Source: Planctomycetales bacterium (lineage in GTDB: Bacteria > 4484-113 > JAFGCY01). Taken from it: a DNA stretch of 32,000 nucleotides. Of this stretch, positions 2,031 to 31,546 are shown in pieces (within the stretch, counting starts at the first letter, position 1; each line of letters opens with the position of its first letter). The DNA lies in assembly GCA_022646745.1 (NCBI GenBank), contig CP060262.1, forward strand, positions 330,001 to 362,000. The letters run 5' to 3'. The position numbers and the translations under genes are program-made. The notes beneath the pieces were generated by a model, which was not told where the DNA came from, made no database searches, and saw nothing but the letters and a program-made list of their open reading frames with translations.

Positions 2031-2159
2031 GGAGCTACCCGCTTTAGCGGTAGAACGGAGCTGCGGCGCCAGCCGCACAACGGAGGCCAAGCTGTAAGCT
2101 TGGCGTCTGCCAGGCAAACTGCCTGGCCTCCAACATGTCCCTGTAGCTCTAAGAGCTAC
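2031..2159. repeat. Cluster of short palindromic (REP-like) hairpin modules, including a nested two-hairpin module
   Basis: ggagctacccgctttagcggtag (2031-2053). tgcggc/gccgca hairpin (2062-2077). Outer stem ggagg/cctcc (2082-2131) encloses gccaagc-tgtaa-gcttggc and gccaggca-aac-tgcctggc. gtagctc-taa-gagctac (2143-2159). Related copies occur at 12201-12245, 14203-14220 and 14411-14429. Confidence 0.8.
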
Positions 2160-2271
2160 ACTCCACCCTCTATTGCGCCCAGGGCCCACAGCTACTAAGA
2201 ACTAACAACTTCTTCCACTATTCGAACTACCCAAACCATCCCGAAGCCTGCGAAGCTCTGCTTCGCGGCTC

Positions 2272-2327
2272 CCCTGCCTTCTGCCTGTTGCCTTTTGCCT
2301 TCTGTTCCCCGTTCCCTGTTCCCTACT
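2272..2327. repeat. Single-arm heptanucleotide array (NNCTGCC dialect) abutting a stop codon
   Basis: ccctgcc ttctgcc tgttgcc ttttgcc ttctgtt ccccgtt ccctgtt ccctact. The period is exactly 7. The last unit contains the minus-strand TAG stop (2323-2325). Confidence 0.8.
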
Positions 2328-2784
2328 TCATCTCCTCTATCAGCGAGCGCATCTTCTCCGCGCTGACCCCGCTCGAACGCCTCACTTCAATCACGCCGTC
2401 CGGCTTGCCATCCCCGTCCACATCCTGCCCGGCTGCCATATCCTCCCCGAAGCCCAGCAGGATGTAGTCCTTCACGTCATAGCCGTCATGCACCGCGATG
2501 TAGCACACGTTGCCAGCCGCCAGCTCGCCGGCGGTGAAGGCCACCGGATGCATCTCAGTGCGGTCGTAGGGATTGATGAGCGCCATGTTCTGCCCGTCCT
2601 TCATCAGGTCGGCGTTCAGCGTCTCCGGGTACAGCCCGCCATTCTGCCGCGCCCAGTCCAGCAGGTTCTGCTCAATGGTGGCAATGTGCGCCTTGAGCTC
2701 CATGTCCGCCGGACTGCTCGCCGCTGGCTGCTTGCAGCCGGCCAGCAGGGCCAGCAGCGCAATCGCAATCCAGTAAATCTTCAT
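2323..2784 (-). CDS. Small lipoprotein of unknown function
   Basis: 153-aa ORF with lipoprotein signal MKIYWIAIALLALLAGC. A purine-rich SD (gggggaa) lies upstream of the ATG. The segment IEQNLLDWARQNGGLYPETL weakly recalls pseudopilin-type folds, with no firm family call. Confidence 0.7.
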   Translation of the reverse strand: MKIYWIAIALLALLAGCKQPAASSPADMELKAHIATIEQNLLDWARQNGGLYPETLNADLMKDGQNMALINPYDRTEMHPVAFTAGELAAGNVCYIAVHDGYDVKDYILLGFGEDMAAGQDVDGDGKPDGVIEVRRSSGVSAEKMRSLIEEMK

Positions 2785-2973: not shown

Positions 2974-3684
2974 ATGTCAACTCAGGAAACACAGACCCGC
3001 AGTACCGGCGGGGTGAAGCGGGTACGCCTCGTGCTCGCCGCCCGCGAGCACCATTATGCTGACGTCCACACCTACCACTTCAGCGCGGACGAGCCGCTGC
3101 CCTACAACGCCGGGCAGTACGTGCATGTCGCCCTCGAGCTGGCCGACCCGGATGCCAAGCGCGTGCGTGAGCTGTCATTCTCATCCGCGCCGCATGAGGA
3201 GCATGTCAGCTTCACCATCGACGGCCGCTCGCGCTCACCCTTCCAGTTGCATATGCTGGCAATGCAGCCCGGGGACAGCCTGCAGCTGTTCAAGTCCAAG
3301 ATGCATATGCTGTGGCCGGTGATCGAGGAATGCGTGGTGTTCATCGCAGGCGGCGTCGGCGTCACGCCCTTTCGTTCGATGGCGCTGGACAAAGAGCACA
3401 GCAGGGTGCGGATGCGGATGGAGCTGATCCACGCCGCCGGCAGCGAGCACCTGTTCGCCGACGTGCTCCAGCCCCTGATGGATGAATACATCGCCACCGA
3501 CCGTGCGGGTCTGGCCGGCGAAGTCACGGCCTGCATCGAGCGCAACCCGGATGCACGCTACTACATCGCGGGCTCACCGGGCTTCGTGGAGGGCATGATG
3601 CAGCAGCTAGAGGCGGGCGGCATCAGCCCAAAGAAGATCGAAACGGACGAGTTCAAGGGCTATGTGGAAGAATGGCAGGAGTAG
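2974..3684 (+). CDS. Ferredoxin-NADP reductase-like FAD/NAD(P)-binding oxidoreductase
   Basis: R-x-[YF]-S type FAD motif (RELSFSS) and NAD(P) motif FIAGGVGVTPF. I place the start at ATG 2974, preceded by AGGAG at 2965-2969, rather than at the GTG 2854 of the ORF track. Confidence 0.8.
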   Translation: MSTQETQTRSTGGVKRVRLVLAAREHHYADVHTYHFSADEPLPYNAGQYVHVALELADPDAKRVRELSFSSAPHEEHVSFTIDGRSRSPFQLHMLAMQPGDSLQLFKSKMHMLWPVIEECVVFIAGGVGVTPFRSMALDKEHSRVRMRMELIHAAGSEHLFADVLQPLMDEYIATDRAGLAGEVTACIERNPDARYYIAGSPGFVEGMMQQLEAGGISPKKIETDEFKGYVEEWQE

Positions 3685-3686
3685 TT

Positions 3687-3791
3687 GTCAGACTACAGAC
3701 ACCAGACTTCAGAAATCAGACTTCCGAATTCAGATACCAGACGTCAGAACAACCTGAAATCTGGCGTCTGTAGTCTGACCACTGACCACTG
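3687..3791. repeat. Heptad-periodic hairpin element (NNCAGAC dialect) between convergent genes
   Basis: 15 consecutive 7-nt units in one phase. 3687-3706 pairs with 3760-3779 (19/20 bp) and the stem extends through 3708-3712/3754-3758. The element lies between the stop of the FNR-like gene and the 3' end of tRNA-Val. Confidence 0.85.
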
Positions 3792-3874: not shown

Positions 3875-3879
3875 GGATA

Positions 3880-3953
3880 TGGAGGCGGCGGGCGGAATCG
3901 AACCGTCGATAAAGGATTTGCAGTCCTCTGCCTTACCACTTGGCTACGCCGCC
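3880..3953 (-). tRNA. tRNA-Cys (anticodon GCA), CCA encoded
   Basis: The reverse complement is GGCGGCGTAGCCAAGTGGTAAGGCAGAGGACTGCAAATCCTTTATCGACGGTTCGATTCCGCCCGCCGCCTCCA. The acceptor stem is GGCGGCG/CGCCGCC, the anticodon loop is CTGCAAA, and discriminator U73 is typical of tRNA-Cys. The T stem has one A-C mismatch. Confidence 0.9.
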
Positions 3954-3994
3954 GGGTGCCCTTCCCACGGGACGGCCCGCAGGGGGGAAGAAGA

Positions 3995-4022
3995 ATTATA
4001 ACACTGCATCAGGGCGGCGCAA
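3995..4022 (-). promoter_or_regulatory. Candidate sigma70-type promoter for the tRNA-Cys/tRNA-Val unit
   Basis: On the minus strand, TTGCGC (4017-4022) is followed by a 16-nt spacer and TATAAT (3995-4000). The predicted start is about 35 nt upstream of tRNA-Cys. Confidence 0.45.
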
Positions 4023-4051
4023 GCGGCCCAGCGATGAGAAAAGAGCGAAGA

Positions 4052-4160
4052 GCCTGAATAGCAATGAGCAATGAAGAGTGAGCAATGATCCAATGGAGAA
4101 GCGGGGTCACCTCCCCCTGGTCAGGCTCATTGCTCATCACTCATTTCTCATTGCTCAGCC
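4052..4160. repeat. Heptad-periodic hairpin element (GAGCAAT/ATTGCTC dialect)
   Basis: Left-arm units are tagcaat gagcaat gaagagt gagcaat and right-arm units are attgctc atcactc atttctc attgctc. 4079-4088 pairs with 4127-4136. The core 4060-4088 is 28/29 identical to the reverse complement of 12332-12360. Confidence 0.85.
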
Positions 4161-4185: not shown

Positions 4186-4222
4186 AAAAAAAACTCCCCG
4201 GAGCTACTACCCTCCGAGGAGT
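4186..4222 (-). terminator. Rho-independent terminator of the 758-aa lipoprotein gene
   Basis: The minus strand reads ACTCCTCGGAG-ggtagtag-CTCCGGGGAGT followed by T8 (plus-strand A8 at 4186-4193). It lies about 60 nt downstream of the TAA stop at 4283. Confidence 0.65.
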
Positions 4223-4282: not shown

Positions 4283-6559
4283 TTACAGGCCGATCGGCGG
4301 AGCCGGATCGGTCGTGGTGCCGCCGTCATCGTCCACCGGGAAGCCGGGTTCGATGAAGATCGGGCCACCGCCACCGCCGCTGCCGCCGGGGGCGCCGATG
4401 GGCCACATCCAGAAGTCCATCTCCTTGTCGTACATGTCCGGCCAGATGCGGATGAAGATGTCCTCGTAGCCACCCTTCTGGATCAACAGGTTGTACTCAA
4501 CCTCAGCCAGCGTGGTGCTGTAGCGGCCGTTGGAATCACTCAGCACGTGGCTGAAGTAGCCACCGCCGAGCTGCTCGTCAGTCGGGGTGAACACCATGTC
4601 TGCGCCGGCGATCGTCGAGTCGTCAAAGCCATCGTAGACCGTGCCGCTCTTGTTTCCGGTGTTGACGTCCGGGGCCTCATAGGTCTCCAGCACGAGGTTC
4701 ACGTTGCTGGCCTGGCCGTCACGGATCTCGACCATGATGCCCTGCGTCAGGTGGCCGTTGCGGTAACCGCTGACCAGCCACTCGCCGGTGGGCACGTTGT
4801 CAATCACGAACTCGCCGTTGGAGTTGGTGTAGGTGAAGGGGTCGACGTTGGGCTGCGTGGCATTCACCAGCGCATCCGGGATCGGGTTGCCATCCTCGTC
4901 GGTGACGCGTCCCTCGACGCTGCCCACCGGGACCTCCGGCAGGGTGATGGTCACCTCGTTGGCGGCCGCCTCCTCCTCCACGGTCACGTCGGCGCTGTAG
5001 GAGATGTGGCGGTAGGCGCTGGCGAACACGTAGTACGGTCCGGCCGGCACGTCCTCGAAGCTGAACTCGCCGTTGTCATCCGCCCAGCCGCTGTAATAGC
5101 CGATGAAGTCCGGGGCCACCATCGAGCTTGAGCGTCCGTTGCGCTGCTCCCAGAGGAAGCGCTGCAGCATGTTGTTGTCAAACTCGCTGCTGTTCTGGCT
5201 GTTGCCGTCGCTGTTGGTGCTGCCCTCGGCGAAGTCCGCCGCGGGGGCCATGAAGCCGTCGTCACTGCCGCCGGTGCTGAAGTCCTCACCGCGGGTCTGC
5301 GGCGGGGCCGGGGCACCGAACTCATTGAAGATCTCCACGCCGTCCTCGAACATCATGTCGAGGTCCACCGCGCCGGGCACGGCGATGCCGCCGCCGAAGC
5401 CGCCACCGAACACGTACTCGACGTAGGCACCCTTGATCGGGTTGCCATCGCCGTCAACCACCACACCGCTGATGTCGGTGTAGACGATCGGCTGGATCTC
5501 GATCTCGAGGTCCAGGTCGCTCGTGCGGTTGTAGATGTCCTCGGACAGGCTGGCGTTCAGGTAGCCATCCTTGTAGACGCTGATCCAGGCGCTGTAGCCG
5601 GCCACGCCGTCGGGGAACTCGAAGTTGCCGTCGGCATCGGTGGTCACTTCCTGGTACTGCGGCTCGTAGCGCCAGTAATCCTCATACGGGGCGGAGGTCA
5701 TCGCCTCACGGCCGTCGCTGCCGCCACCGCCGAAGCCGGGGTCGCTCTGGCCGCTGTCCACCACGCCGGTATCCACGTCATCCCACTTGATGTCGTCCTC
5801 GAAGGGCATCGGCATCGGCTCGGGGATTCCGAAGTAGCCGGTATCGACCATCATGCTGACGGTGGCATCCGCCACGCCGGCACCGGTCTTCTGGTCCACC
5901 ACGCGGCCCGTGACGGTGATGCCCTCGCCGCTGCCAACCTGGCCCTTGCGGGTCAGCTCGATGTTGCGCACGCTGGTGTCACCCTCGGCGATGCGGACCA
6001 TCGCCATGCCGGGGTAGTAATCCTCGGTGTTGGCCACGATGTTCCAGGTGCCGGCAGCGACGTTGGAGAAGCTGTAGACACCACCGCTGCTGTGCGTCGT
6101 CTGCACGCCGCCGGCCTCGGAGAAGATGGTTACTTCCACGCCGTTGAGGCCCGCACCGGACTTGTCGTCGGTGACGGTACCGCCAAGGCTGCCCGTGCCC
6201 TCATTCACGGTCGGGTCAAAGCGGATCACCAGGTTCTGGTTGTCCAGCGGGACCACGCTGCGGCTGCCGATGACGACACCGTTGGTGCCGAGCGAAATTT
6301 CGTTCTCCGCGTTCACGCCGCGCGGGAACTGACCGCGCTGCAGGGTGAAGTTACCGTTCGCATCAGTGCTGATGCCGGTATCCACGCCCTCGACGCGCAC
6401 CTGCATGTTGCTCAGCGGTGTGCCGTTGTTTCCGTAGGCGACTGCGGTCATGCGCTCGAAGCTGTCCGGCGGCGTCGCCGGGCCTCCTGAGCCTCCGCAG
6501 GATGAAAGCAGCGCGGCAATTGCGGCCAGCGCCACCCATACGATTTTCACTGTCTTCAT
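4283..6559 (-). CDS. Large surface lipoprotein with multiple carboxypeptidase-regulatory-like (CarboxypepD_reg) beta-sandwich repeats
   Basis: 758-aa ORF with lipobox LLSSC and a Gly/Ser tether. Repeated signatures include GTVTDDKSGAGLNGVEVTIF, GRVVDQKTGAGVADATVSM, GVVVDGDGNPIKGAYVEY, GRVTDEDGNPIPDALVNA and GTVYDGFDDSTIAGADMVF. GGAGG lies 7 nt upstream of the ATG. Confidence 0.8.
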   Translation of the reverse strand: MKTVKIVWVALAAIAALLSSCGGSGGPATPPDSFERMTAVAYGNNGTPLSNMQVRVEGVDTGISTDANGNFTLQRGQFPRGVNAENEISLGTNGVVIGSRSVVPLDNQNLVIRFDPTVNEGTGSLGGTVTDDKSGAGLNGVEVTIFSEAGGVQTTHSSGGVYSFSNVAAGTWNIVANTEDYYPGMAMVRIAEGDTSVRNIELTRKGQVGSGEGITVTGRVVDQKTGAGVADATVSMMVDTGYFGIPEPMPMPFEDDIKWDDVDTGVVDSGQSDPGFGGGGSDGREAMTSAPYEDYWRYEPQYQEVTTDADGNFEFPDGVAGYSAWISVYKDGYLNASLSEDIYNRTSDLDLEIEIQPIVYTDISGVVVDGDGNPIKGAYVEYVFGGGFGGGIAVPGAVDLDMMFEDGVEIFNEFGAPAPPQTRGEDFSTGGSDDGFMAPAADFAEGSTNSDGNSQNSSEFDNNMLQRFLWEQRNGRSSSMVAPDFIGYYSGWADDNGEFSFEDVPAGPYYVFASAYRHISYSADVTVEEEAAANEVTITLPEVPVGSVEGRVTDEDGNPIPDALVNATQPNVDPFTYTNSNGEFVIDNVPTGEWLVSGYRNGHLTQGIMVEIRDGQASNVNLVLETYEAPDVNTGNKSGTVYDGFDDSTIAGADMVFTPTDEQLGGGYFSHVLSDSNGRYSTTLAEVEYNLLIQKGGYEDIFIRIWPDMYDKEMDFWMWPIGAPGGSGGGGGPIFIEPGFPVDDDGGTTTDPAPPIGL

Positions 6560-6725
6560 GTAGTACCTCCCGCAGTACTAAAAAGAGCGATGCGTGCCAC
6601 TTGGCACGGGATACAGTCTGCACTACAGGCGTATTCTATCCGGTTACCACAGTTTGTGGGGTACCAGTTGGCCAGTTTTTGCGGGTAACCGGTCCAATCC
6701 AGTCTGGATCAGGCCTCAGGCCCCG

Positions 6726-8116: not shown

Positions 8117-11064
8117 CCAGCCTGGATCGCAGAACCCAGCAGTTGCCGGCCGAGGGCATCCAAGGTTGCGTCCTGCGGTTCCGGAATCCGCTCCATGCCC
8201 TCGGCCAGTTCGTCGAGGTGCATCTGCTCCACACGGGCCAGCGTTGCACCCTTCGCCGTCCAGGCAGAGATCGCGGCCACGATCCGCTCCGCCCCCGCCT
8301 CGTCAGCCTGCTCCTTCAGGTAGAGCCCGCAGACCAAAAGCGCCGTTGCCAGCAGGCGTTCGCCGCCGAGTTCGAGCGCATCCGCCAGTGCGGAGCTGAG
8401 CAGTGAATCCAGCGAGTCTCGCCGGCCGAGCCTGAGGCTGGCAGCTGCGATGTCGCACAGGCAGGCCGCGATGCCGTAGCGGTCATCCAGCTCCCGAGAG
8501 ATCGCCATGCTGCGTTCGGCGTACTCCAGTGCCTTTTCGAAGTCCCCGGTGACATAGCTCACCAGTCCCATGTTGCCAAGGCAGTGCGCCACTCCGCGCC
8601 GGTCGGCCAGGTCCTCACGGATCGCGCGGCTGCGCTCCAGCAGCTCCAGCGCGCGGGCAAAGTTGTCAATCCGGTACTCCGTCAGGCCCTGGTTGTTGAG
8701 CGAGCCGGCCAGGCTGTAGCGCTCGCCGAGTTCCTCCTGAATCGCGATCGCCTCATCCTGCATGCGCTGTGCATCCCGGTAGCGGCCCTCGGCACGGGCG
8801 ATCAGCGCCAGCCCGGTCAGCGCGGCCGCGATGCCGTACTGGTTGCCGATCCCGCTGTCGGTGTCCAGCGCCTGCTGGTACAGCCGCCGCGCGTTGCCAC
8901 GGTCGCCGCTGCGCAGGTAGACGCTCGCCAGGCTGATGCTGGCGGAGGCGTATGTCCAGAGGTCGCCGCCGTCACAGGCATCACTCATCGCACGCACGAA
9001 GTCCATCTTCGCGCCGACATTGTCACCGGCCGCACGGTTGACGCAGCCCGACAGCCAGCAGGCCAGCGCGCGGCTCTCAAGGTCCTCACTCTCCAGGAGC
9101 AGGCCGGCCAGCTCACGCAGCACACGGCGCGCCGCCGGCAGGTGCCCGTCACGTTCCAGCACGCGGGCCAGCCCGAGCAGCACCTGCACCTTCAGTTCAT
9201 CACTGCCGCTGCGCTCGACGTACTCATGCAGGCGGCGGAACCACTGCAGCTGCTCCCGCTGGCGCGTTGCCATTTCCTGGAAGCGTGCCAGGTAGCGCAC
9301 CAGCGGTGCCAGCAGCTCGTTGTCAGCGAGCCGGATCGCGGTCTCGATCGCCAGGTAGAAGTTCTCCGTCTCCGGCCTGAGCCGCGCCAGGGCCTCGATC
9401 TGCCCGGCCCCCTTGAGCTGCTCGCCGAGCCGTGCGATCAGTCTACTATAGCTAGCAGCATGCGCCCTGAGCACTTCATCCTGCCGGCCGCTGGCTTCCA
9501 GCTGCTCGTTGGCAAAGCGCCGCGAGGCGGCATCGCGCATCATGAAACGGGTCTGGGAGCCGCTCCTGCGGCTGACGAGCCAGCTGCGGTCCACCAGCGC
9601 ACTGAGCTGCATACGGGTCACGCCGGGCAGCACCTCCGCCAGCTGTTCATGGCTGAAGCCACCGCGGAACACGCTCAGGCCCTGCAAAAGCTCCTGCTGC
9701 TGCGTTGTCAGGTGCCCGTAGCTCCATTCACAGGAGGCGCGCACGCTGGAGTGGCGCTGCGGCATGTCGCTGTGGCGCGACTGCAGGTCCAAAAGCCCGC
9801 CCAGTTCATCGCGCAGCTCCTCGAGGCTGAAGCTGTCCAGCCAGGCCGCCGCCAGCTCAATCGCCAGCGGCACGCCCTCGAGACGGTGGCAGACCTGCTG
9901 GATCAGCAGGGCGTTGTCAGCATCAAGCAAGAAGTCCGGGTCAGCCTGCTGCGCGCGGTCCACGAACAGCGCGATCGCCTCCCCCGGCTCATGCAGCATG
10001 TCCGCCGGCGGGATGCCGAGGGGCTCGATGCGCAGCAGCTGCTCGCGGCGCAGGTGCAGCGGCACGATGCTCGTCACGAGGATGCTCACGCGCGGCGCTT
10101 CCCGCAGGATGCGGTCCACCAGCGGCGCGGCATCAGTGATGTGTTCGAAGTTGTCAAGGTAGAGCAGGAGCTCACGTTGCGCGAGGAAGTCCACCAGCTG
10201 GTCCTCTGGGGCGCGGCTGCCGTGGAAGCTGAAGCCCAGTGCATCCGCGATCGCCGAGACCACGCGGCTGGCATCCCCGAGGCTGGACAGCAGCACCTCA
10301 CAGGCGCCATGCTCGAAATGGTCCAATAACTCGGCGCAGCACTGCGCGGCCAGCCGGCTCTTGCCGTAACCCGGCGGGCCGACGATGCTCACCAGCCGGC
10401 GCTCGCCATCCGTCAGCATCCGCCTGAGATTGTCCAGTTCATCGCGCCGTCCGACGAATGTGCCGGCCTGTTCACTGAGCCGGCCCTTAAGGCTGCCGAC
10501 GGTCGGCAGCGGCGGGAATTCACTCTGGCCGAAGTCCGCATGCACGACCTGCACCAGCTCCTCCGGCTCGCCGAGGTCCCGCAGGCGCTGCATGCCGAGG
10601 TTGATGCTGGCTAACCCGAGCGGCAGGTCGCCGGACAGGCCGTCCAGCAGCTCGCGGGATACCAGCAGCTGGCCGGGATGGCAGCACTGGCAGATGCGCG
10701 CGGCCCGGTTGAGCGGCGGCCCGAACCATTCGCCGCCGCTGGACAGCTGGCGCAGCCGCCCACCATGCGCCACCACGCGCATCCTCAGCGGTGAATTGTC
10801 CGGCAGCAGGCCCAGCCCCTCCACCGAGCGCTGCAGCTCGACGGCGCAGCGCAGGCAGGCATCGGCACTGGCGAACAGCAGCAGGTAGCCGTCACCGAGG
10901 TTCTTGTGCAGCACGCCGCCCTGGGCAGCCACCTGCTCCTCGATCATGCGGTTGTGCGCATCCAGCAGGCGCGGGTAGTCGGACGGGAAGTCCTCCCACA
11001 ACCGTGAGGATGATGCGATGTCCGTGATCAGGATGTAGTGCTGCTGCAGCGATGCCGAATCCAC
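8113..11064 (-). CDS. Class III adenylate/guanylate cyclase domain fused to a STAND-type P-loop ATPase and C-terminal TPR array
   Basis: 983 aa. The cyclase motifs are ILITDIASSS (metal Asp), KNLGDGYLLLF (second Asp) and FGPPLNRAARI (Asn/Arg). The Walker A is GPPGYGKS at about aa 229-236, preceded by FVGRRDELDNL. The C-terminal half holds many TPR-like repeats (for example YQQALD, EKALEYAERSMAI). GTG start. Confidence 0.85.
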   Translation of the reverse strand: MDSASLQQHYILITDIASSSRLWEDFPSDYPRLLDAHNRMIEEQVAAQGGVLHKNLGDGYLLLFASADACLRCAVELQRSVEGLGLLPDNSPLRMRVVAHGGRLRQLSSGGEWFGPPLNRAARICQCCHPGQLLVSRELLDGLSGDLPLGLASINLGMQRLRDLGEPEELVQVVHADFGQSEFPPLPTVGSLKGRLSEQAGTFVGRRDELDNLRRMLTDGERRLVSIVGPPGYGKSRLAAQCCAELLDHFEHGACEVLLSSLGDASRVVSAIADALGFSFHGSRAPEDQLVDFLAQRELLLYLDNFEHITDAAPLVDRILREAPRVSILVTSIVPLHLRREQLLRIEPLGIPPADMLHEPGEAIALFVDRAQQADPDFLLDADNALLIQQVCHRLEGVPLAIELAAAWLDSFSLEELRDELGGLLDLQSRHSDMPQRHSSVRASCEWSYGHLTTQQQELLQGLSVFRGGFSHEQLAEVLPGVTRMQLSALVDRSWLVSRRSGSQTRFMMRDAASRRFANEQLEASGRQDEVLRAHAASYSRLIARLGEQLKGAGQIEALARLRPETENFYLAIETAIRLADNELLAPLVRYLARFQEMATRQREQLQWFRRLHEYVERSGSDELKVQVLLGLARVLERDGHLPAARRVLRELAGLLLESEDLESRALACWLSGCVNRAAGDNVGAKMDFVRAMSDACDGGDLWTYASASISLASVYLRSGDRGNARRLYQQALDTDSGIGNQYGIAAALTGLALIARAEGRYRDAQRMQDEAIAIQEELGERYSLAGSLNNQGLTEYRIDNFARALELLERSRAIREDLADRRGVAHCLGNMGLVSYVTGDFEKALEYAERSMAISRELDDRYGIAACLCDIAAASLRLGRRDSLDSLLSSALADALELGGERLLATALLVCGLYLKEQADEAGAERIVAAISAWTAKGATLARVEQMHLDELAEGMERIPEPQDATLDALGRQLLGSAIQAG

Positions 11065-11147: not shown

Positions 11148-12152
11148 TCAGCCCGCGGCGAAGATCCGCTTGCGGCGCTCCAGCACGTCATTGCATGCAT
11201 CGAGCACGCCCTTGACGTTCAGGCCCGCGAGGTCCATCAGCTCATACGGGTCGCCGCTGGAGAGGTACATGTCGCGCACCGCCACCAGGCGCACCGGCAC
11301 GAGGTTCTCGCCCTCCGCCATCACCGTCGCCACCGTGCTGCCCATGCTGCCGTAGTAGCTGACTTCCTCGGCCACCACGATGCCGCCGGTCTCGCCCGCC
11401 GCCGCCGCGATCGCTTCGCGGTCGATCGGCTTGACGCTGCTCATGTTGAGCACGCGCGCCGAAATGCCCTGCTCCGCCAGCTGCTCGGCAGCCAGGATGC
11501 AGCGTGAGAGCATCAGGCCATGCCCGATGATCGTGATGTCAGTGCCCTCCAGCACCTTGGTGGCCTTGCCGAAGTTGAAGGGCGTATCCTCACTGGAGAT
11601 CAGCGGCACCTTCTCGCGGCCGATGCGGCTGTACATCGGGCCGTACCACTCCGCCATGAACTTGGTGCACTTGAGCGTCTCCCAGTAGTCCGTGGGGTAG
11701 ATCAGCGCGGTGTTCACCAGCGGCTGGATGCAGGAGCAGTCCTCGGAGGACTGGTGCGTCGGGCCGTCCTTACCGACGGAGATGCCGCCGTGCGCGGCGG
11801 TGATCTTCACGTTGCAGTAGGAGTAGTCCACGGTGTTACGGATCTGGTCCCAGGAACGGCCGGCGAGGAACATCGAGTAGCTCGCGAGGTAGGGGATGAA
11901 GCCCTGCTTGGCGAGGCCCGCCGCCGTGTTGATCATGTCGTTCTCGGAGATGCCGCACTCGAAGAAGCGGCCGGGGTAGCGGTCGCGGAAGAACTTCGTG
12001 TAGGTGGACTCCGCCAGGTCGGCGTCGAGCACCACGACCTTCTCGTTGGTCTCGCCGAGCGCCAGCAGCGCATCGCCGAAGCCCTCGCGCGTGAGCTTGT
12101 CCTCCCAGGCGGAGCTGGGCTTGTAACCGTTCAGATAGTTGAGTTGTGCCAT
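11148..12152 (-). CDS. Transketolase, C-terminal (pyrimidine-binding plus C-terminal domain) subunit of a split enzyme
   Basis: 334 aa. TREGFGDALLALGETNEKVVVLDADLAESTYT, GISENDMINTAAGLA and HGGISVGKDGPTHQSSED are canonical transketolase Pyr-domain motifs. Confidence 0.9.
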   Translation of the reverse strand: MAQLNYLNGYKPSSAWEDKLTREGFGDALLALGETNEKVVVLDADLAESTYTKFFRDRYPGRFFECGISENDMINTAAGLAKQGFIPYLASYSMFLAGRSWDQIRNTVDYSYCNVKITAAHGGISVGKDGPTHQSSEDCSCIQPLVNTALIYPTDYWETLKCTKFMAEWYGPMYSRIGREKVPLISSEDTPFNFGKATKVLEGTDITIIGHGLMLSRCILAAEQLAEQGISARVLNMSSVKPIDREAIAAAAGETGGIVVAEEVSYYGSMGSTVATVMAEGENLVPVRLVAVRDMYLSSGDPYELMDLAGLNVKGVLDACNDVLERRKRIFAAG

Positions 12153-12200: not shown

Positions 12201-12245
12201 GGAGCTACCCGCTTCAGCGGTAGGAGGCCAGGCTGTTAGCCTGGC
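12201..12245. repeat. Palindromic module pair (REP-like), homologous to 2031-2053 and 2082-2104
   Basis: ggagctacccgcttcagcggtag matches 2031-2053 at 22/23 positions. gccaggc-tgtta-gcctggc (12227-12245) recurs reverse-complemented at 14411-14429. Confidence 0.8.
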
Positions 12246-12260
12246 TGCGGGATGCGGGAT

Positions 12261-12365
12261 GCCGAGCAATAAAGAATTAGTCCTGAGCAATGAGCCAATC
12301 CTGACTGAGCTAACTTCGATGCAACATGGACTCATTGTTCACTCTTCATTGCTCATTGCTTCCCC
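12261..12365. repeat. Heptad-periodic hairpin element (GAGCAAT dialect), inverted copy of 4052-4160
   Basis: 15 units of 7 nt in one phase. The reverse complement of 12332-12360 is agcaatgagcaatgaagagtgaacaatga, against agcaatgagcaatgaagagtgagcaatga at 4060-4088. A second shared block is ggctcattgctca. Confidence 0.85.
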
Positions 12366-12480
12366 CAGCCGCCGGACATTCAGGGCGGGGATCACGACAA
12401 AGGCGTGATCCTCGGGCGGGGATGTCAAACAGGCCGGCGGCTGGTGAGGATATCGGAGCTGGGTTGTAGCGGGTAGCGGA
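12361..12480 (+). repeat. 120-bp direct repeat, copy A (left flank of the low-GC orphan ORF)
   Basis: It aligns without gaps to 13128-13247 at an offset of 767 nt. The blocks gccggacatYcagggcggggat and cgggcggggatgtcaaacaggccggcggctggtgagga are near-identical, with a variable 23-nt centre. Outer stem is gccgccgg/ccggcggc. Confidence 0.85.
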
Positions 12481-12531
12481 AGAACTGAAGAACGGAGGTG
12501 TGCAATATATCTGAACAGCTATAATCCTGAA

Positions 12532-13083
12532 ATGAAACTTCCTCAGCCCCAAAACTGGTGGGATAACTCAATGCTTAAGGACGCGGAGATCCAGGTGTAT
12601 GACAATTCTCTCGAGTTGAGTCCCCATTCTATCTACATGAAGGCTCTGTTGGATGAAGAAAAACCACCGTGGATTGACGAAATCTATGCAATTCGATGGC
12701 GCGATGATTGGCAATGGCAGATTCTATTCGAATCAAAGTGTGAGTTTGATTCAGCTCGGACAATTGTAGTTATCTCAAATCAGGATGATCAATTCCTCGA
12801 AATAGACACTATGTGGTCACATACTCACATGTCTCCATGTGATGTGATTGATTGGATCGTCAGAATGCGAACGGAGTCACTAGTCGAGATTGTTTACTTC
12901 ATTGACAATGAAGACCGGGGAGGTGCTTACAAAGAAGCTTCATACCTTAAGACCGCCAATCCACAGCAAGAAGTACTGGACTTTTTTCGCAAAGTTGGAA
13001 GTACCAACATAGGCAAGGTTGTCACTAGAGCTGTATTCTCATGGAAGGGAACATTTGACTCGGTAATGGAAGTCAGATTGTAA
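12532..13083 (+). CDS. Orphan hypothetical protein in a low-GC (about 40%) insert
   Basis: 183-aa uninterrupted ORF, acidic and Trp-rich, with no motif I recognise. TATAAT (12520-12525) lies 6 nt upstream of the ATG. An alternative start is ATG 12571, after ggtggga. Composition contrasts sharply with the flanks. Confidence 0.6.
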   Translation: MKLPQPQNWWDNSMLKDAEIQVYDNSLELSPHSIYMKALLDEEKPPWIDEIYAIRWRDDWQWQILFESKCEFDSARTIVVISNQDDQFLEIDTMWSHTHMSPCDVIDWIVRMRTESLVEIVYFIDNEDRGGAYKEASYLKTANPQQEVLDFFRKVGSTNIGKVVTRAVFSWKGTFDSVMEVRL

Positions 13084-13127
13084 CTGAAAGCAGTTGCCAA
13101 AAAAATGTGATATTCGGCTTCAACTGG

Positions 13128-13247
13128 TTCCCAAGTCGCCGGACATCCAGGGCGGGGATTGAGCCGCAGGCGAGATCCACGGGCGGGGATGTCAAACAGG
13201 CCGGCGGCTGGTGAGGACTTTGGAGCTGGGTTATAGGGTGTAGCGGA
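13128..13247 (+). repeat. 120-bp direct repeat, copy B (right flank of the low-GC orphan ORF)
   Basis: See copy A. The outer stem keeps pairing through a C-to-T change (gtcgccgg/ccggcggc, giving a G-U pair). Confidence 0.85.
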
Positions 13248-13258
13248 TGGATCCAGAT

Positions 13259-14197: not shown

Positions 14198-14281
14198 GGA
14201 GTGTAGCTCTTAAGAGCTACATGGCCCTGTCGGTCTTTGACCGACACTCCGAATACCTTGCCGCCTCATACAAGTATTCGG
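14198..14281. repeat. Nested palindromic (REP-like) module cluster
   Basis: Outer stem ggagtg/cactcc (14198-14250) encloses the perfect 18-nt palindrome gtagctcttaagagctac (14203-14220) and gtcggtc-ttt-gaccgac (14229-14245). It is followed by ccgaatac...gtattcgg (14249-14281). Confidence 0.8.
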
Positions 14282-14379
14282 CGGTCTGTCGCTGAGGCCG
14301 GCAAATCCGTCCGGGTCGCGAACATGAAGGAATCGGCTTGTGCGACAATCACGCCAGGGCGTTATCGCAGCTCCTGATC

Positions 14380-14466
14380 CTCATTCTGATTCTCTTTCTG
14401 CTTCTGCCTTGCCAGGCTAACAGCCTGGCCTCCCTTCTGCCTACTGCCAACTGCCTACTGCCCACT
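14380..14466. repeat. Heptad array (NNCTGCC dialect) interrupted by a palindrome and running into a stop codon
   Basis: The sequence ...tctttct gcttctg ccttgcc is followed by the palindrome gccaggctaacagcctggc (14411-14429), then cccttct gcctact gccaact gcctact gcccact. The TAG stop of the VOC gene (14455-14457) lies inside a unit. Confidence 0.8.
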
Positions 14467-15378
14467 CGCCCCGTATTGCCAGAAGGTCACCACATTCCCC
14501 GCCGGGTCCGACACGCTGAACCACTGCAGGTCCGCCGGCTCGCCCTGCAGCTCCTCCGGCTCAGCTCCGCTGGCAACGAGCCGTGCATGTTCGGCGGCGA
14601 TGTCGAAGCATTCGAAGCACAGGCGCAGGGGTGCCGGATCACTGTCCTCCGGGTTGCCACCGCCCCACCAGCTGGCCCAGTCCATCAGGCCGACGAAGCG
14701 TCCCTCATCTGACAGTTTCAGGGCCTTGTAGACACTGCCATGTTCCTGCAGCACATTGAAGGCCAGGTGCTGCGTGTACCACTCCGTCGCCTCGTCAATA
14801 TTGCCAACGAACACCAGCGCTTCGCCCATGCCGTAGCGGCTGGATGCCGGAGCCTGTGCCGCATGCGCCTCCACGGCCTGCGTGGCGGCGACGTCACTGG
14901 TGGCATCCGCCCAGATGATCAGCGGCTCGCCGTACTTATGCCTGATGCCGATGGTCTGCATCGACTCATCGCCCGTGATCTCCGTGCAGTCGTTGCCAAG
15001 TGCGATCAGCCGCGCGCGGTCCGTGGCCAGGTCCATGCTCTGGAAGCTCAGGTTGGCAGCCGGTGTCGGCCCACCGGGTTCGAATCCCTCAGCCCATTGT
15101 GCAGCGACGAGTGACATCTGGTAGGCATTGTCACAGCTGATGGATGCGTACTGGTCGCCGAATTCGAACATCACGGTCCAGCCCAGCCTGTCACGGTAAA
15201 AGTCCCGGCAGGCGGTCCAGTCCTCGGCGTAGCAGACCACCTCAGCGACCTGCAGGCGGTGGGCATCATTGCTCTTCTGTGCATCCATGGAAGCCTCCCG
15301 GGCGTGCGGGAATTCAGGTATGAACAGCAGCAGCATTGCGGCTGTTGCCATTACCAGGCAGTGAATGGTCCTGTGCAT
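14455..15378 (-). CDS. Secreted protein with two VOC/glyoxalase-bleomycin-resistance-type domains
   Basis: 307 aa with signal peptide MHRTIHCLVMATAAMLLLFIPEFPHA. There are two beta-alpha-beta-beta-beta style modules (VAEVVCYAEDWTACRDFYRDRLGW... and ALVFVGNIDEATEWYTQHLAF...DPAGNVVTFWQ). A GGGGAG SD lies upstream. Confidence 0.7.
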   Translation of the reverse strand: MHRTIHCLVMATAAMLLLFIPEFPHAREASMDAQKSNDAHRLQVAEVVCYAEDWTACRDFYRDRLGWTVMFEFGDQYASISCDNAYQMSLVAAQWAEGFEPGGPTPAANLSFQSMDLATDRARLIALGNDCTEITGDESMQTIGIRHKYGEPLIIWADATSDVAATQAVEAHAAQAPASSRYGMGEALVFVGNIDEATEWYTQHLAFNVLQEHGSVYKALKLSDEGRFVGLMDWASWWGGGNPEDSDPAPLRLCFECFDIAAEHARLVASGAEPEELQGEPADLQWFSVSDPAGNVVTFWQYGASGQ

Positions 15379-15422: not shown

Positions 15423-15527
15423 TCTAGACACCAGACTACAGACTACAGACTTCAGAGTGCTGAGCCCTCGATTCTGCTGCCAACGAAGATCTGATGTCTG
15501 AAGTCTGAGCTCTGAAGTCTGACGTCC
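15423..15527. repeat. Heptad-periodic hairpin element (NNCAGAC dialect)
   Basis: The 15 units are tctagac accagac tacagac tacagac ttcagag tgctgag ccctcga ttctgct gccaacg aagatct gatgtct gaagtct gagctct gaagtct gacgtcc. 15446-15457 pairs with 15510-15521 (12 bp). It shares the 11-mers agactacagac, agacaccagac and cagacttcaga with 3687-3791. Confidence 0.85.
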
Positions 15528-15528
15528 G

Positions 15529-16617
15529 CTACTCCACCGGCGACATTTCCCGGAAGTGGTCCGGCTTCACCGCGTCCGGGTGCAGGGTGTTGTGGCGCTT
15601 CTCGGTGATCGTAAGGTCCGCCGGGCCGCCCGGGCCCTCGCTGTCCATGTGCACCACGCGTGCCCAGGGGCTGGCCTGGATCTGCTGCACCACGCCGTCG
15701 TAGACCGGCGCGCCGTACTCCGCGCGTACCTCGTCGAGGTTCTCGAATTCATAGCCGAGCGCCTTCAGGCAGGCAGTGGCCTCCGCATCGGTGCAGGCCT
15801 TGCCGTGCCACTTGAAGATGTCCTCGTACTCCGGCACACCCTTCATCATCGTGGTGTGGAAGACCAGCGCCTTCGGGCTGCCCTCCTGCTTGCGGGCCCA
15901 GCTCCAGGCCGCGTTGATCGCGTCCATGTCATGCCCGTCCACGTTCTGCACCATCCAGTGGCAGGCCTCCAGCTTCTTGTCCAGCGGGTCAAGGCGCTTC
16001 ACGTCCTTCACGCGGCCGTCGATCTGGATGTCGTTGTAGTCGCAGCTCATCACCAGGTTGTCCGTGCCACGGTGCCCGGCGTGCATGATCGCTTCCCAGA
16101 TCTGCCCTTCCTGCATCTCGCCGTCGCCGACGTTGCAGTAGACGAACTGCTCGCCCTTGCCCTCAAGCTTCTTCCCAAGCGCCATGCCATGCGCCACGCT
16201 GAGGCCCTGCCCAAGCGAGCCGGTGCCGATCTCGACACCCGGCAGCTTGATGTGGTTCGGGTGGCCCTGCAGACGGCTCGGGGTGGAGCGGAAGGTCAGC
16301 AGGTAGCCCGGGCTGAAGAAGCCGCGGCGTGACAGCAGGCTGTACTGCAGCGCGCTGACGTGGCCGTTGGAGATCACGTACTTGTCGCGGTCCGGCCAGT
16401 AGGGCTTATGGGGGCGGATGCGCATGTGGTTGAACAGCAGCGCCGCGGTGTAGTCGGCCATGCTGAACGGCCCGCCGGTATGGCCGCTGTTGGCGGCATT
16501 GGTCATCATCACCGCGTCCTTGCGCAGCGTGCGCGCGACCTCCCTGAGCTCATCGTTGCTCAGATTGAGCGTGTCGGCCTTAAGGCTGCGTTCGCGGATT
16601 TCGGCGTGTGAAAGCAC
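15529..16617 (-). CDS. Transketolase, N-terminal (TPP-binding) subunit of a split enzyme, with a C-terminal extension
   Basis: 362 aa. NSGHTGGPFSMADY, GSLGQGLSVAHGMALG and VGDGEMQEGQIWEA are canonical transketolase PP-domain motifs. GTG start with ggggtga upstream. About 70 extra residues follow the WHGKA region. Confidence 0.9.
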   Translation of the reverse strand: MLSHAEIRERSLKADTLNLSNDELREVARTLRKDAVMMTNAANSGHTGGPFSMADYTAALLFNHMRIRPHKPYWPDRDKYVISNGHVSALQYSLLSRRGFFSPGYLLTFRSTPSRLQGHPNHIKLPGVEIGTGSLGQGLSVAHGMALGKKLEGKGEQFVYCNVGDGEMQEGQIWEAIMHAGHRGTDNLVMSCDYNDIQIDGRVKDVKRLDPLDKKLEACHWMVQNVDGHDMDAINAAWSWARKQEGSPKALVFHTTMMKGVPEYEDIFKWHGKACTDAEATACLKALGYEFENLDEVRAEYGAPVYDGVVQQIQASPWARVVHMDSEGPGGPADLTITEKRHNTLHPDAVKPDHFREMSPVE

Positions 16618-16658: not shown

Positions 16659-16705
16659 GGAAGCAGGCAGGGAGCCGAAAGCAGATAGCAGATATCAGAG
16701 CTGCC
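16659..16705. repeat. Truncated heptad element (AGCAG dialect, left arm only)
   Basis: The sequence is ggaagcaggcagggagccgaaagcagatagcagatatcagagctgcc. The 15-mer gaaagcagatagcag (16677-16691) is identical to 19741-19755. It lies about 55 nt 3' of the 971-aa gene stop. Confidence 0.75.
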
Positions 16706-19675: not shown

Positions 19676-19734
19676 TTATTGGATGCGAAGCAGTATTCTA
19701 GCCTTATACGCAAATCCCGTGGGAATGAAAGAGG

Positions 19735-19852
19735 ATAGCTGAAAGCAGATAGCAGGGATCAGACTCGGCACTTCGATCCTTCTGCGGCAGTTCACCTGTC
19801 CGCGTCTGCTCTCTGCTCCCTGCGCTCTGCTTTCTGCTATCTGTTCCCTATT
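19735..19852. repeat. Heptad-periodic hairpin element (AGCAG/CTGCT dialect) between the two dockerin-PQQ paralogs
   Basis: The left arm is gaaagca gatagca gggatca gactcgg. The right arm is gtctgct ctctgct ccctgcg ctctgct ttctgct atctgtt ccctatt. 19751-19764 pairs with 19804-19817. The 20-mer gtctgctctctgctccctgc (19804-19823) is identical to 31593-31612. The last unit holds the TAG stop. Confidence 0.85.
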
Positions 19853-27900: not shown

Positions 27901-28191
27901 AGCAACACTGCCCTGGCGGACCCGGTCGGCATCGGGGCCGGGCAGATGCAGCACACGCTGTCCGCGGCCCAGGCCTGGGGCCTGACTGCCGTGGCGATCT
28001 CCGACCAGTTCGGCGGCGAGCAGGGCTGGCTGGAATGGAGCAACTTCGGTGAGTTTGAAAGCCTCGCGCTGCCACCGATCGACATGCAGTACACGATGAT
28101 GCACGAACTGGTCGTCGGAGCAGATGGCCGCTGGCACATCATCTACCGCGACAAGCGAGACGGGGCGATCTATGCGATCAGCACCACATGA
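24940..28191 (+). CDS. Giant lipoprotein: N-terminal beta-sandwich, FN3-like and PKD-like domains, then a large propeller-like C-terminal region
   Basis: 1083 aa with lipobox VLASC and a Gly tether. The FN3-like stretch ends in YRYRVRVADVSGNSS. The PKD-like stretch is GQMVTFDLSGSYDPDGEPLTEYTVQFDN. Blade-like repeats carry degenerate Asp-box-like motifs (DNDGTNW, YDEGTASW, RNGGSW). GAGGAG lies 7 nt upstream of the ATG. Confidence 0.8.
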   Translation: MRFNRTRIYLLMLLLMPAVLASCGAGGGSAVSSLDVASQPSHPLQDSAALADGLPALDQLPEPSRSAMLSGPGYFPVPVLEQGVMLQRSGSVMSGPQGIELDGSAGEAWVLFGVYGFDGDSQPNSVMAEATDVQGSFHIGVTHYASGRWEWSAPFTGDEEHEYEHVAQYTVADQYVSERGYHYIAVLAPEGSSLLLSGLQLGVDGGDNAPVAPDYFEISNGDAGFHFWWYPSPDHDDPDFAGYTMQRALWPGTDFQDLGPLSHETFYHDAAADPALLYRYRVRVADVSGNSSWGYSNTPVSVSGDNYPVPALEMPAGPLYGGQMVTFDLSGSYDPDGEPLTEYTVQFDNTNGMGGVGPLTSTDPLVSVLLQPGCYVVQAAAKSTVYCQPIVDTLKIYPAWQPEPQLVAEPGSGQWRMQSSRSIYWQQGDAIVTFFNDYLGPGLGALVQHADGSREILQVPYYLYDIDWISEPVVWQGQPYVGVVSDNVMLLAAIGVDGLQWVEGGLGYTGFVNIDLVVDGEDQLRVCTLNEYNPGDFEVLAINAGNPLDIYTLEFMSNSDGPFDVEWNPEYGGFELIYTTVGSIHWNRTDEEGGLVDNDFVGAGIFDSLDMELHADGSPGVMGRSGGSFVYFSYDEGTASWSAPEVIEPAGLNGKSGDLLFDGNDMAAFFGLAVGQSSLYRRNGGSWDPQTVNWALLSGQHCAIAQWPDGRVNIIDGTVGGAIFISDFNEDGSHPAPIEVPSVSWDGIDLNAVAGADGIHAVWRGDNGAIHYIADNDGTNWNASTGFVSSDALELMADENGKVFVGNTHGATADLFSWFGGAWLIEGSSNRWGSSLPYLAAQRDAPGGQFIVQDDLPVPPALRHMHDDGGGFLVFDSYDFDTIRIDEGVSLFTGAGLISFVRGDEILGSSGLVGFISADDHSYAHQIHDYLYTSSVDLTRGRRMDACNYLTGPSNSHSAFWVSGLEDGAPGVTRFQGKAYNGKYNVDSNTALADPVGIGAGQMQHTLSAAQAWGLTAVAISDQFGGEQGWLEWSNFGEFESLALPPIDMQYTMMHELVVGADGRWHIIYRDKRDGAIYAISTT

Positions 28192-31543: not shown

Positions 31544-31546
31544 GTG

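Follow-up and report, generated by a model that had tools for sequence, protein, structure and literature searches.

Here we describe a set of short repeated elements that occupy the spacers between genes in a 32,000-nucleotide (nt) stretch of DNA recorded as Planctomycetales bacterium (assembly GCA_022646745.1, contig CP060262.1, positions 330,001 to 362,000 of the forward strand), which is referred to throughout as the window. The elements consist of imperfect heptanucleotide tandem units, the arrays of which are paired convergently, each purine-rich array being followed by its pyrimidine-rich complement, such that the DNA encodes stem-loops of 60-135 nt. Their placement follows one layout rule, which reads stop codon, sense purine-rich array, sense pyrimidine-rich array, next gene. 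Judged by sequence comparison, these elements are a further case of a described, functionally unexplained repeat kind, with more unit families and a higher density than in the described cases. Our preferred reading, to which we give a probability of roughly 45%, is that they are transcribed post-stop-codon stem-loops that would shield or set the 3' ends of mRNAs or be sites of processing, and whose arms grow by 7-nt slippage.

A gene map of the window (62.6% G+C) was built from long open reading frames (ORFs), a tRNA scan, and gene calls on matching public contigs, which left an intergenic remainder of 3,034 nt. All of the heptamer arrays lie in these spacers or overlap a stop codon by no more than 18 nt. 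Paired elements were named E1 to E6, while the single arrays and a half element are given by their coordinates.

3683-3791: E1, NNCAGAC dialect, span 101 nt; arms 3683-3712 and 3754-3783 with more CAGAC units between them; between a convergent oxidoreductase gene (stop 3684, gap -2 nt) and tRNA-Val on the other strand (3' end 3798, 14 nt away)
4025-4160: E2, GAGCAAT/ATTGCTC dialect, span 96-136 nt; made up of inverted repeats I2, I5, I7, and I8; downstream of a gene for 758 amino acids (aa) and its terminator, 71 nt upstream of tRNA-Cys
12258-12365: E3, GAGCAAT dialect, span ~104 nt; a 35-pair hairpin kept in four genomes
15423-15528: E4, NNCAGAC dialect, span 100 nt; 2 nt from the stop (15529) of the transketolase N-terminal-half gene, next start codon 48 nt on
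19730-19852: E5, AGCAG/CTGCT dialect, span 108 nt; 6 nt past the stop of the 956-aa gene
31546-31613: E6, GCAGA/TCTGC dialect, a short hairpin with a span of 59-68 nt; 2 nt after stop 31543
2270-2331, minus strand: single array, purine-rich on the sense strand (GGGAACA x3, then AAGGCAN x4); overlaps the stop (2323-2325) of the 153-aa gene; no inverted partner of this array was found
14374-14472, minus strand: single arrays, purine-rich on the sense strand, of GGCAGTA type (14428-14472) and degenerate AAGGCAG/AATCAG type (14374-14406); they flank a small palindrome (14411-14429) and overlap the stop (14455) of a glyoxalase-like gene
16659-16705: half element of AGCAGAT units, pyrimidine-rich on the sense (minus) strand; 41 nt upstream of the transketolase N-terminal-half start codon

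The arms form stems of 20-30 bp with periodic mismatches and are separated by inter-arm stretches of 15-48 nt. Polarity is fixed, with the purine-rich arm 5' and the pyrimidine-rich arm 3' in every paired element of the window (all six in the 32 kb) and of its relatives. Seven was the only recurring period detected by Tandem Repeats Finder, save its multiples 14 and 21 at the same arrays and a period of 6/12 at 14374-14406; matches within the period-7 arrays ran from 70 to 100%, and the units of one array are typically 70-85% alike. The five longest inverted repeats in the entire 32 kb (arms no more than 150 nt apart) are all heptamer elements.

Period-7 arrays: 2274-2324, 3688-3734, 3775-3791, 4060-4088, 4125-4157, 12331-12360, 14433-14466, 15432-15456, 15485-15526, 16680-16699, 19805-19843, 31594-31612
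Inverted repeat I1: 3683-3712/3754-3783, 90% identical
Inverted repeats I2 to I5: 4060-4091/4124-4155; 19734-19763/19812-19841; 15427-15456/15497-15526; 4025-4053/4132-4160
Inverted repeat 31554-31575/31591-31612: part of E6; I9 and I16 make up the short element 31546-31613

An earlier annotation, made by a model from the letters of the window (the original prediction), had read 3687-3791 in steps of seven and reported the same architecture at several further sites. Stepping by seven returned exactly the units it listed, both here and at the other coordinates it quoted; its pairing of 3687-3706 with 3760-3779 at 19 of 20 positions was confirmed; and the period-7 arrays and longest inverted repeats fall at the sites of recurrence that it gave. 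Its view that one phase is locked through both arms fared worse. A 7-periodic arm appears patterned in any frame, and because each arm is 7-periodic, a phase kept through both is trivial at any loop length. The core register of the 3' arm also differs between elements (NNGTCTG in E1, GNNGTCT in E4, ATTGCTC in E2), and phase-locking as an independent constraint was rejected. Similarly, a fixed length of ~105 nt gave way to spans of 68-136 nt (59-68 nt for E6), while of the description as strand-asymmetric, the single fixed polarity stands and the remainder does not, as the hairpin reads alike on both strands.

The unit types recur at distant loci. BLAST found arm segments shared between E2 and E3 (29 nt, 96.6%), E1 and E4 (25 nt, 92%), and E5 and E6 (20 nt, 100%), as well as with an element just outside the window (L167). 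The shared stretches are limited to 20-30 nt of arm; the inter-arm stretches and flanks are unrelated, the unit order differs, and no full-length dispersed copies were found by BLAST in 122 kb of related sequence. In the same 122 kb, runs of three consecutive CAGAC, GCAG, GAGCAAT, or CAGT units each occurred 2-6 times, versus none in a 2-Mb control of other bacteria. The elements belong to a few dispersed families, or dialects, spread across a group of related uncultured bacteria.

Chance is excluded as the source of the heptamer periodicity. In the intergenic DNA of the window, identity at lag 7 was 0.338 versus 0.257±0.008 in 300 dinucleotide-preserving shuffles (z=10.5). Lag 14 gave z=4.3, and the other lags from 4 to 13 all remained at |z|<=1.3. 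The coding DNA (28.5 kb) had a lag-7 identity of 0.255, equal to background, and none of its windows reached 0.75. When an array detector was set to 28-nt windows with >=78% identity at the lag, 90 kb comprising the window and three related loci (L007, L009, and L010) yielded eight lag-7 arrays (0.89 per 10 kb) and none at lags 5 or 8-13, while the control of 154 unrelated loci (1,985 kb) yielded 18 lag-7 arrays (0.09 per 10 kb). Lag 7 was the commonest period in the control as well. The array density of the lineage is therefore about ten times that of 2 Mb of other bacteria.

Every element also folds better as RNA than its dinucleotide shuffles on at least one strand, with the following fold z-scores.

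E1: plus strand -7.8, minus strand -9.4
E2: plus strand -4.2, minus strand -5.8
E3: plus strand -3.4, minus strand -1.9
E4: plus strand -3.2, minus strand -4.3
E5: plus strand -5.9, minus strand -5.1
E6: plus strand -6.2, minus strand -4.9

Entire element-bearing spacers gave fold z-scores of -4 to -12 and divergent promoter-type spacers gave values near 0. In E1, 27 of 30 arm positions form Watson-Crick pairs and two A.C mismatches turn into G.U on the minus strand (folding free energy -44.5 on the plus strand and -59.5 on the minus strand).

A search with the C-terminal half of the transketolase encoded in the window returned four related genomes, listed here with their database labels and protein identity over this half.

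L008: UBP7 HKST-UBA01, 100%
L009: UBP7 HKST-UBA03, 99%
L007: bacterium AC1.30, 99%
L010: Planctomycetales bacterium Ww346, 92%

The contigs of these four genomes are JAGRNR010000014.1, JAGRNT010000001.1, JAWLAZ010000006.1, and JAHEFU010000009.1. Because the following matches drop to 45%, we assign the window on sequence grounds to an uncultured lineage that carries the UBP7 label in database records (two of the four related records are so labelled). A metagenome scan with the transketolase N-terminal half produced no close relatives (best matches 67-73% identical), a literature search on UBP7 found nothing relevant, and an Rfam scan of the window matched the two tRNAs only, both at gathering thresholds and at E<=1, with no family for the elements. 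An assembly artefact is excluded because E1 to E6 are 100% identical across independent samples and assemblers, as seen in contigs from ENA (ERZ28655803, ERZ27309061, and others) and Logan (SRR6747754, SRR12358675/6); the source communities include samples SAMN08389177 and SAMN08389187. A single strain variant differs from the window solely at 3878-3892, 4837, and 4852, and no within-species polymorphism in unit number was seen among the contigs retrieved by exact-protein look-up, all of which are identical in the elements. Nor are the elements confined to one contig, an outcome on which the original prediction would have been withdrawn, as the window and all four related genomes carry such arrays.

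At seven of the nine array or hairpin loci, the gap from stop codon to array is between -18 and 6 nt, with the single arrays overlapping their own stop codons by 9 and 18 nt. E6 occupies the 83-nt spacer of two co-directional genes, with the next ATG (31627) 13 nt beyond its end. Unpaired arrays obey the same rule, being purine-rich on the sense strand after a stop codon and pyrimidine-rich on the sense strand before a start codon. E3 is a seeming exception to the stop-codon rule because a ~0.9-kb cassette (12362-13258) has been inserted between stop and array: in the window E3 lies in a divergent spacer and is cut off from the hydrolase stop by this cassette, while in L008, which is without it, E3 follows the stop at a gap of 0 nt (...GAC TGA AAGCAAT GAGCAAT...). 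The earlier claim that all elements sit at gene 3' ends accordingly holds for most, but neither for E3 in its present divergent spacer nor for E2, which is 122 nt from a stop.

Comparison of the window with its closest relative, L008, gave the following identities.

Third codon positions: 89.4%
First and second codon positions: 98.8%
E1, E2, and E3: 97.3%, 97.1%, and 95.2%, without indels
Other intergenic stretches: 97-100%

By these values the elements evolve more slowly than third codon positions or synonymous sites, and this lower divergence could reflect constraint. Across the four genomes that carry E3 and E5, both elements keep the same genomic position while varying in length and sequence, with unit indels. 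Hairpins homologous to E5 are present in L008, L009, and L007 (31 consensus pairs, 93.5% of cells paired), and E3 is present in all four genomes (35 consensus pairs, 96.4% paired). Alignment of orthologous sites shows elements changing through gain and loss of 7-nt units. Relative to L008, E5 in the window has one additional AGAGCAG unit. Past the glyoxalase-like gene, a 14-nt (two-unit) indel separates the window from L007, which has six perfect AAGGCAG copies to the single one of the window. Where the window has GGGAACA x3 beyond the 153-aa gene, L007 has GGGACCA x4, which reflects a concerted A to C change in every unit plus one unit more.

Whole elements are replaced as well. In the slot after the transketolase N-terminal-half stop, the window has the CAGAC hairpin, and TAG is followed directly by a different hairpin in each of L008, L007, L009, and L010: in L008 a small hairpin with a GGAG-stem-TTTA-stem order followed by AGGTTGC heptamers, and in the other three small hairpins in series. 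Likewise, the oxidoreductase/tRNA-Val spacer holds a CAGT-dialect heptamer hairpin in L007 (CAGTGGT.../...CACTGTT) and a non-heptamer stem of ~34 bp in L009. Thus, the post-stop slot is conserved and its filler is variable, with other kinds of hairpin replacing heptamer elements in relatives.

In the preferred reading, the elements would be transcribed along with the upstream gene and form the 3' or intercistronic portion of its mRNA, where the stem-loop would either block 3'->5' exonucleases or be processed by a double-strand-specific RNase. By analogy with repetitive extragenic palindromic (REP) elements and phage intercistronic hairpins, the outcome would be a defined and stabilized 3' end for the mRNA of the upstream cistron. 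Replication slippage would have left the 7-nt texture as its trace, and periodic arms could re-pair one register over, such that the stem would tolerate unit indels. The elements would not act as classical U-tract terminators, a role that is unlikely because E4 and E6 precede the next co-directional start by 48 and 13 nt, respectively, and E2 follows a real terminator. The observations that speak for this reading are the proximity to stop codons, the fold z-scores, the conserved slot with variable filler, the low divergence relative to third codon positions, the unit-step indels, the lack of excess in a terminator scan, and the precedent of the transcribed Xanthomonas heptamer arrays described below. 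The E5 consensus fold is also better on the sense strand (-37.4 kcal/mol versus -29.5 kcal/mol antisense), which points to sense-strand action but is no more than suggestive, given that periodic arms may also pair in shifted registers.

Several observations weigh against this reading. Transcription of the elements, 3' ends at them, and an effect on stability are all things that we infer. Relative to L008, the elements of the window have accumulated more differences than the remaining intergenic DNA (~3.4% versus 1.4%), and the substitutions break pairs instead of compensating, the weaker fold being that of L008 for E1 and E2 and that of the window for E3. Covariation among the four genomes was not significant, with double changes at two pairs and one pair that were reached by 68/500 and 252/500 shuffles, respectively. 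For this reason, persistence of the hairpins may be mere sequence conservation, and by these alignments selection specific to the structure of the E3 and E5 hairpins is not demonstrated. The sense-strand excess of G.U over A.C mismatches is small and is confounded by pairing of the arms in alternative registers: G.U and A.C counts are tiny in an ungapped arm comparison, and in alignment-based counts, which favour the sense strand, antisense arms re-pair in shifted registers. Two elements also sit near tRNA genes instead of at a stop codon, namely E2, which is behind the U8 terminator and upstream of a tRNA gene, and the L167 element just outside the window (~6420-6565), which adjoins a tRNA gene in a divergent spacer. 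Lastly, the invariant purine-first polarity and the recurring CAG core are not explained by a stem-loop model.

The alternative that survives best, although we consider it unlikely, is that the elements are functionless mutational by-products, i.e. heptamer microsatellites born by slippage, with inverted copies arising via template switching or local duplication, which are tolerated in non-coding DNA and pile up against the stop codon. Among long microsatellites, heptanucleotide arrays are the one class found in excess in many bacterial genomes, which is generally ascribed to slippage (Mrazek 2007 as cited in PMC4692102), and the 18 lag-7 arrays that make seven the commonest period of the 2-Mb control are in keeping with this. 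The same is true of the unit indels and perfect six-copy runs, the exchange of whole elements at orthologous sites, the pair-breaking substitutions, and the non-significant covariation. However, E1 to E3 are without unit indels between the window and L008 and are 2-4 times less diverged than third codon positions, and some hairpin is present in the same post-stop slot in every relative examined. Random inversion would not yield a constant purine-first polarity, and it is further difficult to reconcile mere slippage with the specific unit variants shared by different loci, such as the 29 nt at 96.6% of E2 and E3.

It is somewhat less probable that the elements are factor-independent terminators used by an RNA polymerase of this lineage that does without a U-tract, bidirectional since the hairpin is alike on both strands. 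Their location at gene 3' ends would suit this role, as would the strong folding of E1 on both strands in its spacer between convergent genes, and canonical terminator-like sites are not enriched in the window: a consensus scan gave 10 versus 10.1±3.9 and 5 versus 8.0±2.7 in shuffles. No match of the consensus terminator and promoter scan coincides with an element, though the scan also missed the real terminator at 4186-4222. That terminator, which the original prediction had recognized, sits alongside E2.

4186-4222, minus strand: canonical intrinsic terminator of the 758-aa gene, a stem-loop plus U8 identified by sequence and fold; outside the heptamer system

With E2 behind it, the organism evidently uses ordinary terminators. 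As the original prediction noted, no U-tract follows any of the elements, the 15 nt past each containing 0-6 T without a run; a weak U/C-rich tail is present at E5 (the element at 19734), CTCTTTCATT. With the next co-directional start 13 nt past E6 and 48 nt past E4, complete termination there would shut off the gene that follows, and stems 2-3 times longer with 15-48 nt between the arms are unlike known terminators. The earlier conclusion that these are not plain intrinsic terminators is thus upheld.

We likewise doubt, and more strongly, that the units are arrays of protein-binding sites, one per 7 nt (in single-stranded RNA or DNA for proteins of e.g. OB-fold or cold-shock type, or in duplex DNA), or that they adopt non-B forms such as G-quadruplexes, the hairpin being secondary in either case. 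A few unit families with a common CAG/GCAG core at many loci of several genomes, absent from 2 Mb of other bacteria, would be expected of binding sites, as would unpaired single arrays that follow the same placement rule, and one CspB molecule per heptamer has been documented (as cited in PMC4679880). Against this, the units in one array are merely 70-85% alike, no candidate protein was identified, and the variable positions of E1 are complementary between the arms too (27/30), which a pure site array does not need. As for G-quadruplexes, the GGGACCN x4 array of L007 has the four G-runs, each of three or four, that such a structure needs, like the Xanthomonas GGGAATC arrays (PMC4692102), and its orthologue in the window (2270-2331) comes nearest with three such runs; the CAGAC, GAGCAAT, and AGCAG units of the main dialects contain no run of three G. 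Because most unit families here are without G-tracts, the G-quadruplex is not a common denominator, and it is the geometry of the arrays to which the comparison points instead of a general G-quadruplex explanation.

To our knowledge, a function of heptanucleotide arrays has been established in no organism. A more far-reaching proposal, which we regard as a long shot, is a post-transcriptional system of this lineage, possibly of all bacteria with convergent heptamer arrays, that would link translation of one cistron to the fate or translation of the next. On melting of the purine arm by the terminating ribosome, the C/U-rich arm would be freed, e.g. as an entry site for Rho or an RNase. Alternatively, the stop codon and the following start would be brought side by side by the stem (as the E6 gaps of 2 nt and 13 nt might allow). 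In either case, a protein that recognizes the units one by one, at 7 nt each, may take part. If true, it would be the first function for this widespread class of simple sequence repeat.

Mobile palindromes copied by a transposase between intergenic sites, similar to miniature inverted-repeat transposable elements or to REP and bacterial interspersed mosaic elements (BIMEs), are the least probable explanation: the arm segments common to distant loci (E2 and E3, E1 and E4, E5 and E6, and the L167 element), the wholesale swaps between close relatives, and the other multi-copy palindromes of the same spacers, at which metagenome contigs break, would fit, but the likeness between loci is limited to a 20-30 nt arm amid unrelated inter-arm stretches, flanks, and unit order, the window showed neither a transposase nor a RAYT gene, and neither terminal inverted repeats (apart from the arrays) nor target-site duplications were recognized by inspection, no dedicated search having been run.

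The cassette that separates E3 from its stop codon is an observation in its own right. Its insertion point lies exactly between the hydrolase stop and E3, and the whole stretch is absent from L008. It contains an orphan ORF (12532-13083, plus strand, 183 aa, 43% G+C) that had no Pfam or NCBIfam match, as a result of which it was rejected as a REP-associated transposase. Two direct repeats of 118 nt (12363-12480 and 13130-13247, 85.6% identical) each fold to a long stem (CCAGCCGCCGGACAT.../...ATGTC-AAACAGGC-CGGCGGCTGG) whose centre varies, and similar repeat ends (GGGTTGTAGSG.GTAGCGG, CCAGCCGGACATTCCGGG) are found in further spacers of L008 and L009. Inspection of the cassette revealed no integron attC-like core motifs (GTTRRRY / RYYYAAC). 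Its sequence suggests a mobile gene cassette with the post-stop slot as its target.

The same spacers hold a second family of mini-hairpins, composed of GGAG, a variable stem of 7-9 bp, a tri- or tetraloop (often GCAA, GTAA, or GTCA), the complementary stem, and (A)CAA. Per 10 kb, UBP7-type loci contain 6.3 of these hairpins, versus 0.88 in 2 Mb from other bacteria, and they often stand in series and directly after stop codons. One version occurs four times in L007 (3821, 3980, 4153, and 4415), ~160-260 nt apart. Because the flanks are constant while the stems vary and the loops are GNRA-like, they suggest an RNA-level element. Short palindromes often adjoin the heptamer arrays, so that the spacers are mosaics of several repeat families, and metagenome contigs tend to end at spacer repeats (e.g. 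window 12205, 12429, and 12445).

GGAG mini-hairpins: window 2057-2131, 12223-12245, 14198-14221, 14411-14429; L007 3649-4440; L009 4584-4640; L010 3453-3690; others
Palindrome GAGCTACCCGCTTnAGCGGTAG: window 2032-2053, 12202-12223
Palindrome GCCAGGC-n5-GCCTGGC: window 2109-2127, 12227-12245, 14411-14429
Palindrome TGTAGCTC-n3/4-GAGCTACA: window 2142-2160, 14202-14221

Among the genes that neighbour the elements, the transketolase halves (11148-12152 and 15529-16617, both minus strand) are split by 3.4 kb that contains the glyoxalase-like gene, the alpha/beta-hydrolase, the inserted cassette, and three heptamer elements; such halves are usually adjacent genes. Two pairs of tandem paralogues encode large, secreted-looking proteins, one pair of 971 and 956 aa (16760-19675 and 19848-22718, minus strand; 28% identical, with PQQ-like beta-propeller matches on record) and the other of 1083 and 1139 aa (24940-28191 and 28124-31543, plus strand; 40% identical, no Pfam match). 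L009 is without the 971-aa copy. E5, which follows the 956-aa gene, and the half element, which follows the 971-aa gene, may be copies from this gene duplication. Between E2 and tRNA-Cys (3954-4024), a TATAAT box lies on the minus strand at ~3990-4001, GTGTTATAATTC; it was missed by the consensus promoter scan and probably serves as promoter for the tRNA-Cys/tRNA-Val pair.

With respect to known systems, the elements share with intrinsic terminators a stem-loop downstream of genes, from which they differ in the lack of a U-tract, their mismatched stems of 20-30 bp, the 15-48 nt between arms, and the position of one of them behind a genuine terminator. For annotators, this means that element-bearing spacers are not to be taken as terminators. 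REP elements are short extragenic palindromes at operon 3' ends or between cistrons, which stabilize upstream mRNA and, when near a stop codon, affect translation; they are conserved palindromes of ~35-40 nt without internal 7-nt periodicity and are associated with RAYT transposases. The window elements resemble REP elements and BIMEs as dispersed families of post-gene palindromes in mosaic arrangement. However, their arms are tandem arrays, their copies are not full-length homologues, and the window showed no RAYT. The original prediction had named these and the short tandemly repeated repetitive (STRR) sequences of heterocystous cyanobacteria as the closest analogues, and both are sensible comparisons.

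STRR sequences are similarly intergenic tandem heptamers of a few genome-wide unit families, many with CAGT/CTG (compare ACCACTG in the window and GTGGTCA in L007). The STRR1-3 units of filamentous cyanobacteria differ from the window units, and the host records are labelled UBP7, bacterium, or Planctomycetales, none of them cyanobacterial. Cyanobacterial and related heptamers form direct arrays (PMC4679880; bioRxiv 10.1101/2022.06.06.494920), and the TAACTGA arrays of Beggiatoaceae and cyanobacteria are direct repeats mostly just upstream of start codons (PMC4679880). Hairpin pairing and stop-codon abutment are not part of the definition of STRR or TAACTGA arrays, and taxa and units differ. 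An unrelated metagenome contig (L108) has two arrays (5882-5941 and 9480-9539) of six perfect TCAGGAG/AGGAGTC tandem heptamers, Shine-Dalgarno-like in sequence, the second ending at an ATG (...AGGAGTC AGAATGA) and the first with an ATG a few bases past its last unit (...TCAGCATGAGT); these resemble the TAACTGA arrays in the 5' untranslated regions of Beggiatoaceae. The hupS-asr0689 spacer of Nostoc carries ttgtcag x3 and ccactgactactgac ~85 nt apart (PMC2408588, Table 3), and by our own reading of that table the two arrays are mutually complementary.

The original prediction had not recognized the arm-symmetric form, but convergent pairs of heptamer arrays at stop codons were already on record in Xanthomonas. 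X. campestris and X. axonopodis (X. citri) each have ~185 imperfect GGGAATC arrays (Rehm et al. 2015, PLoS One, PMC4692102). Between 70 and 75 pairs per genome are in convergent orientation, one array per strand, and capable of forming stem-loops. The arrays are intergenic, chiefly between co-directional ORFs, at a mean of 28 nt from the upstream ORF and often overlapping its stop, with the G-rich strand being the coding strand; in arrays upstream of ORFs, the G-rich strand is the non-coding one. In both species 83% are in the same gene context, with variable length and sequence. Most are transcribed, and transcripts start or stop there more often than at control repeats, with no function established (PMC4692102). 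The window elements share with this class, including the Nostoc GGGGAYT arrays, imperfect tandem 7-nt units, a strongly intergenic location, for most arrays 0-50 bp from a stop codon or overlapping it, a purine- or G-rich coding strand, convergent stem-loop-capable pairs, and the same gene neighbourhood in relatives with variable length and sequence. Every testable architectural feature of the Xanthomonas class except G-quadruplex potential is found in them. They differ in that several unit families coexist in this lineage (NNCAGAC, GAGCAAT, AGCAGNN, GGCAGNN, and GGGAACN), most without G-tracts, that the arms are longer (4-9 units) and nearly all long arrays are paired, and that the host is an uncultured bacterium of UBP7 type. 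Homology to a described repeat family, which the original prediction had named as grounds for its refutation, is seen in architecture and not in sequence.

The convergent layout of the window can also be read from the sequence of another phylum. In a contig of a Bacteroidales metagenome-assembled genome (JAAVFJ010000070.1, L073), the stop at 2557 is followed by GGGTTAA-type units (2558-2601) and then by 14 CCCTAAC-type units (2654-2751), which end 1 nt before the next ATG at 2753. Further CCCTAAC-type arrays are located at 6071-6109 and 6271-6341, and the heptamer unit is one base off the plant telomere repeat TTTAGGG. What the window, Xanthomonas, and the Bacteroidales contig have in common is thus a geometry, a purine array at the stop codon and its complement before the next gene with constant polarity. 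The elements described here are not a novel kind; their value lies in providing a clean comparative case for the role of heptamer arrays.

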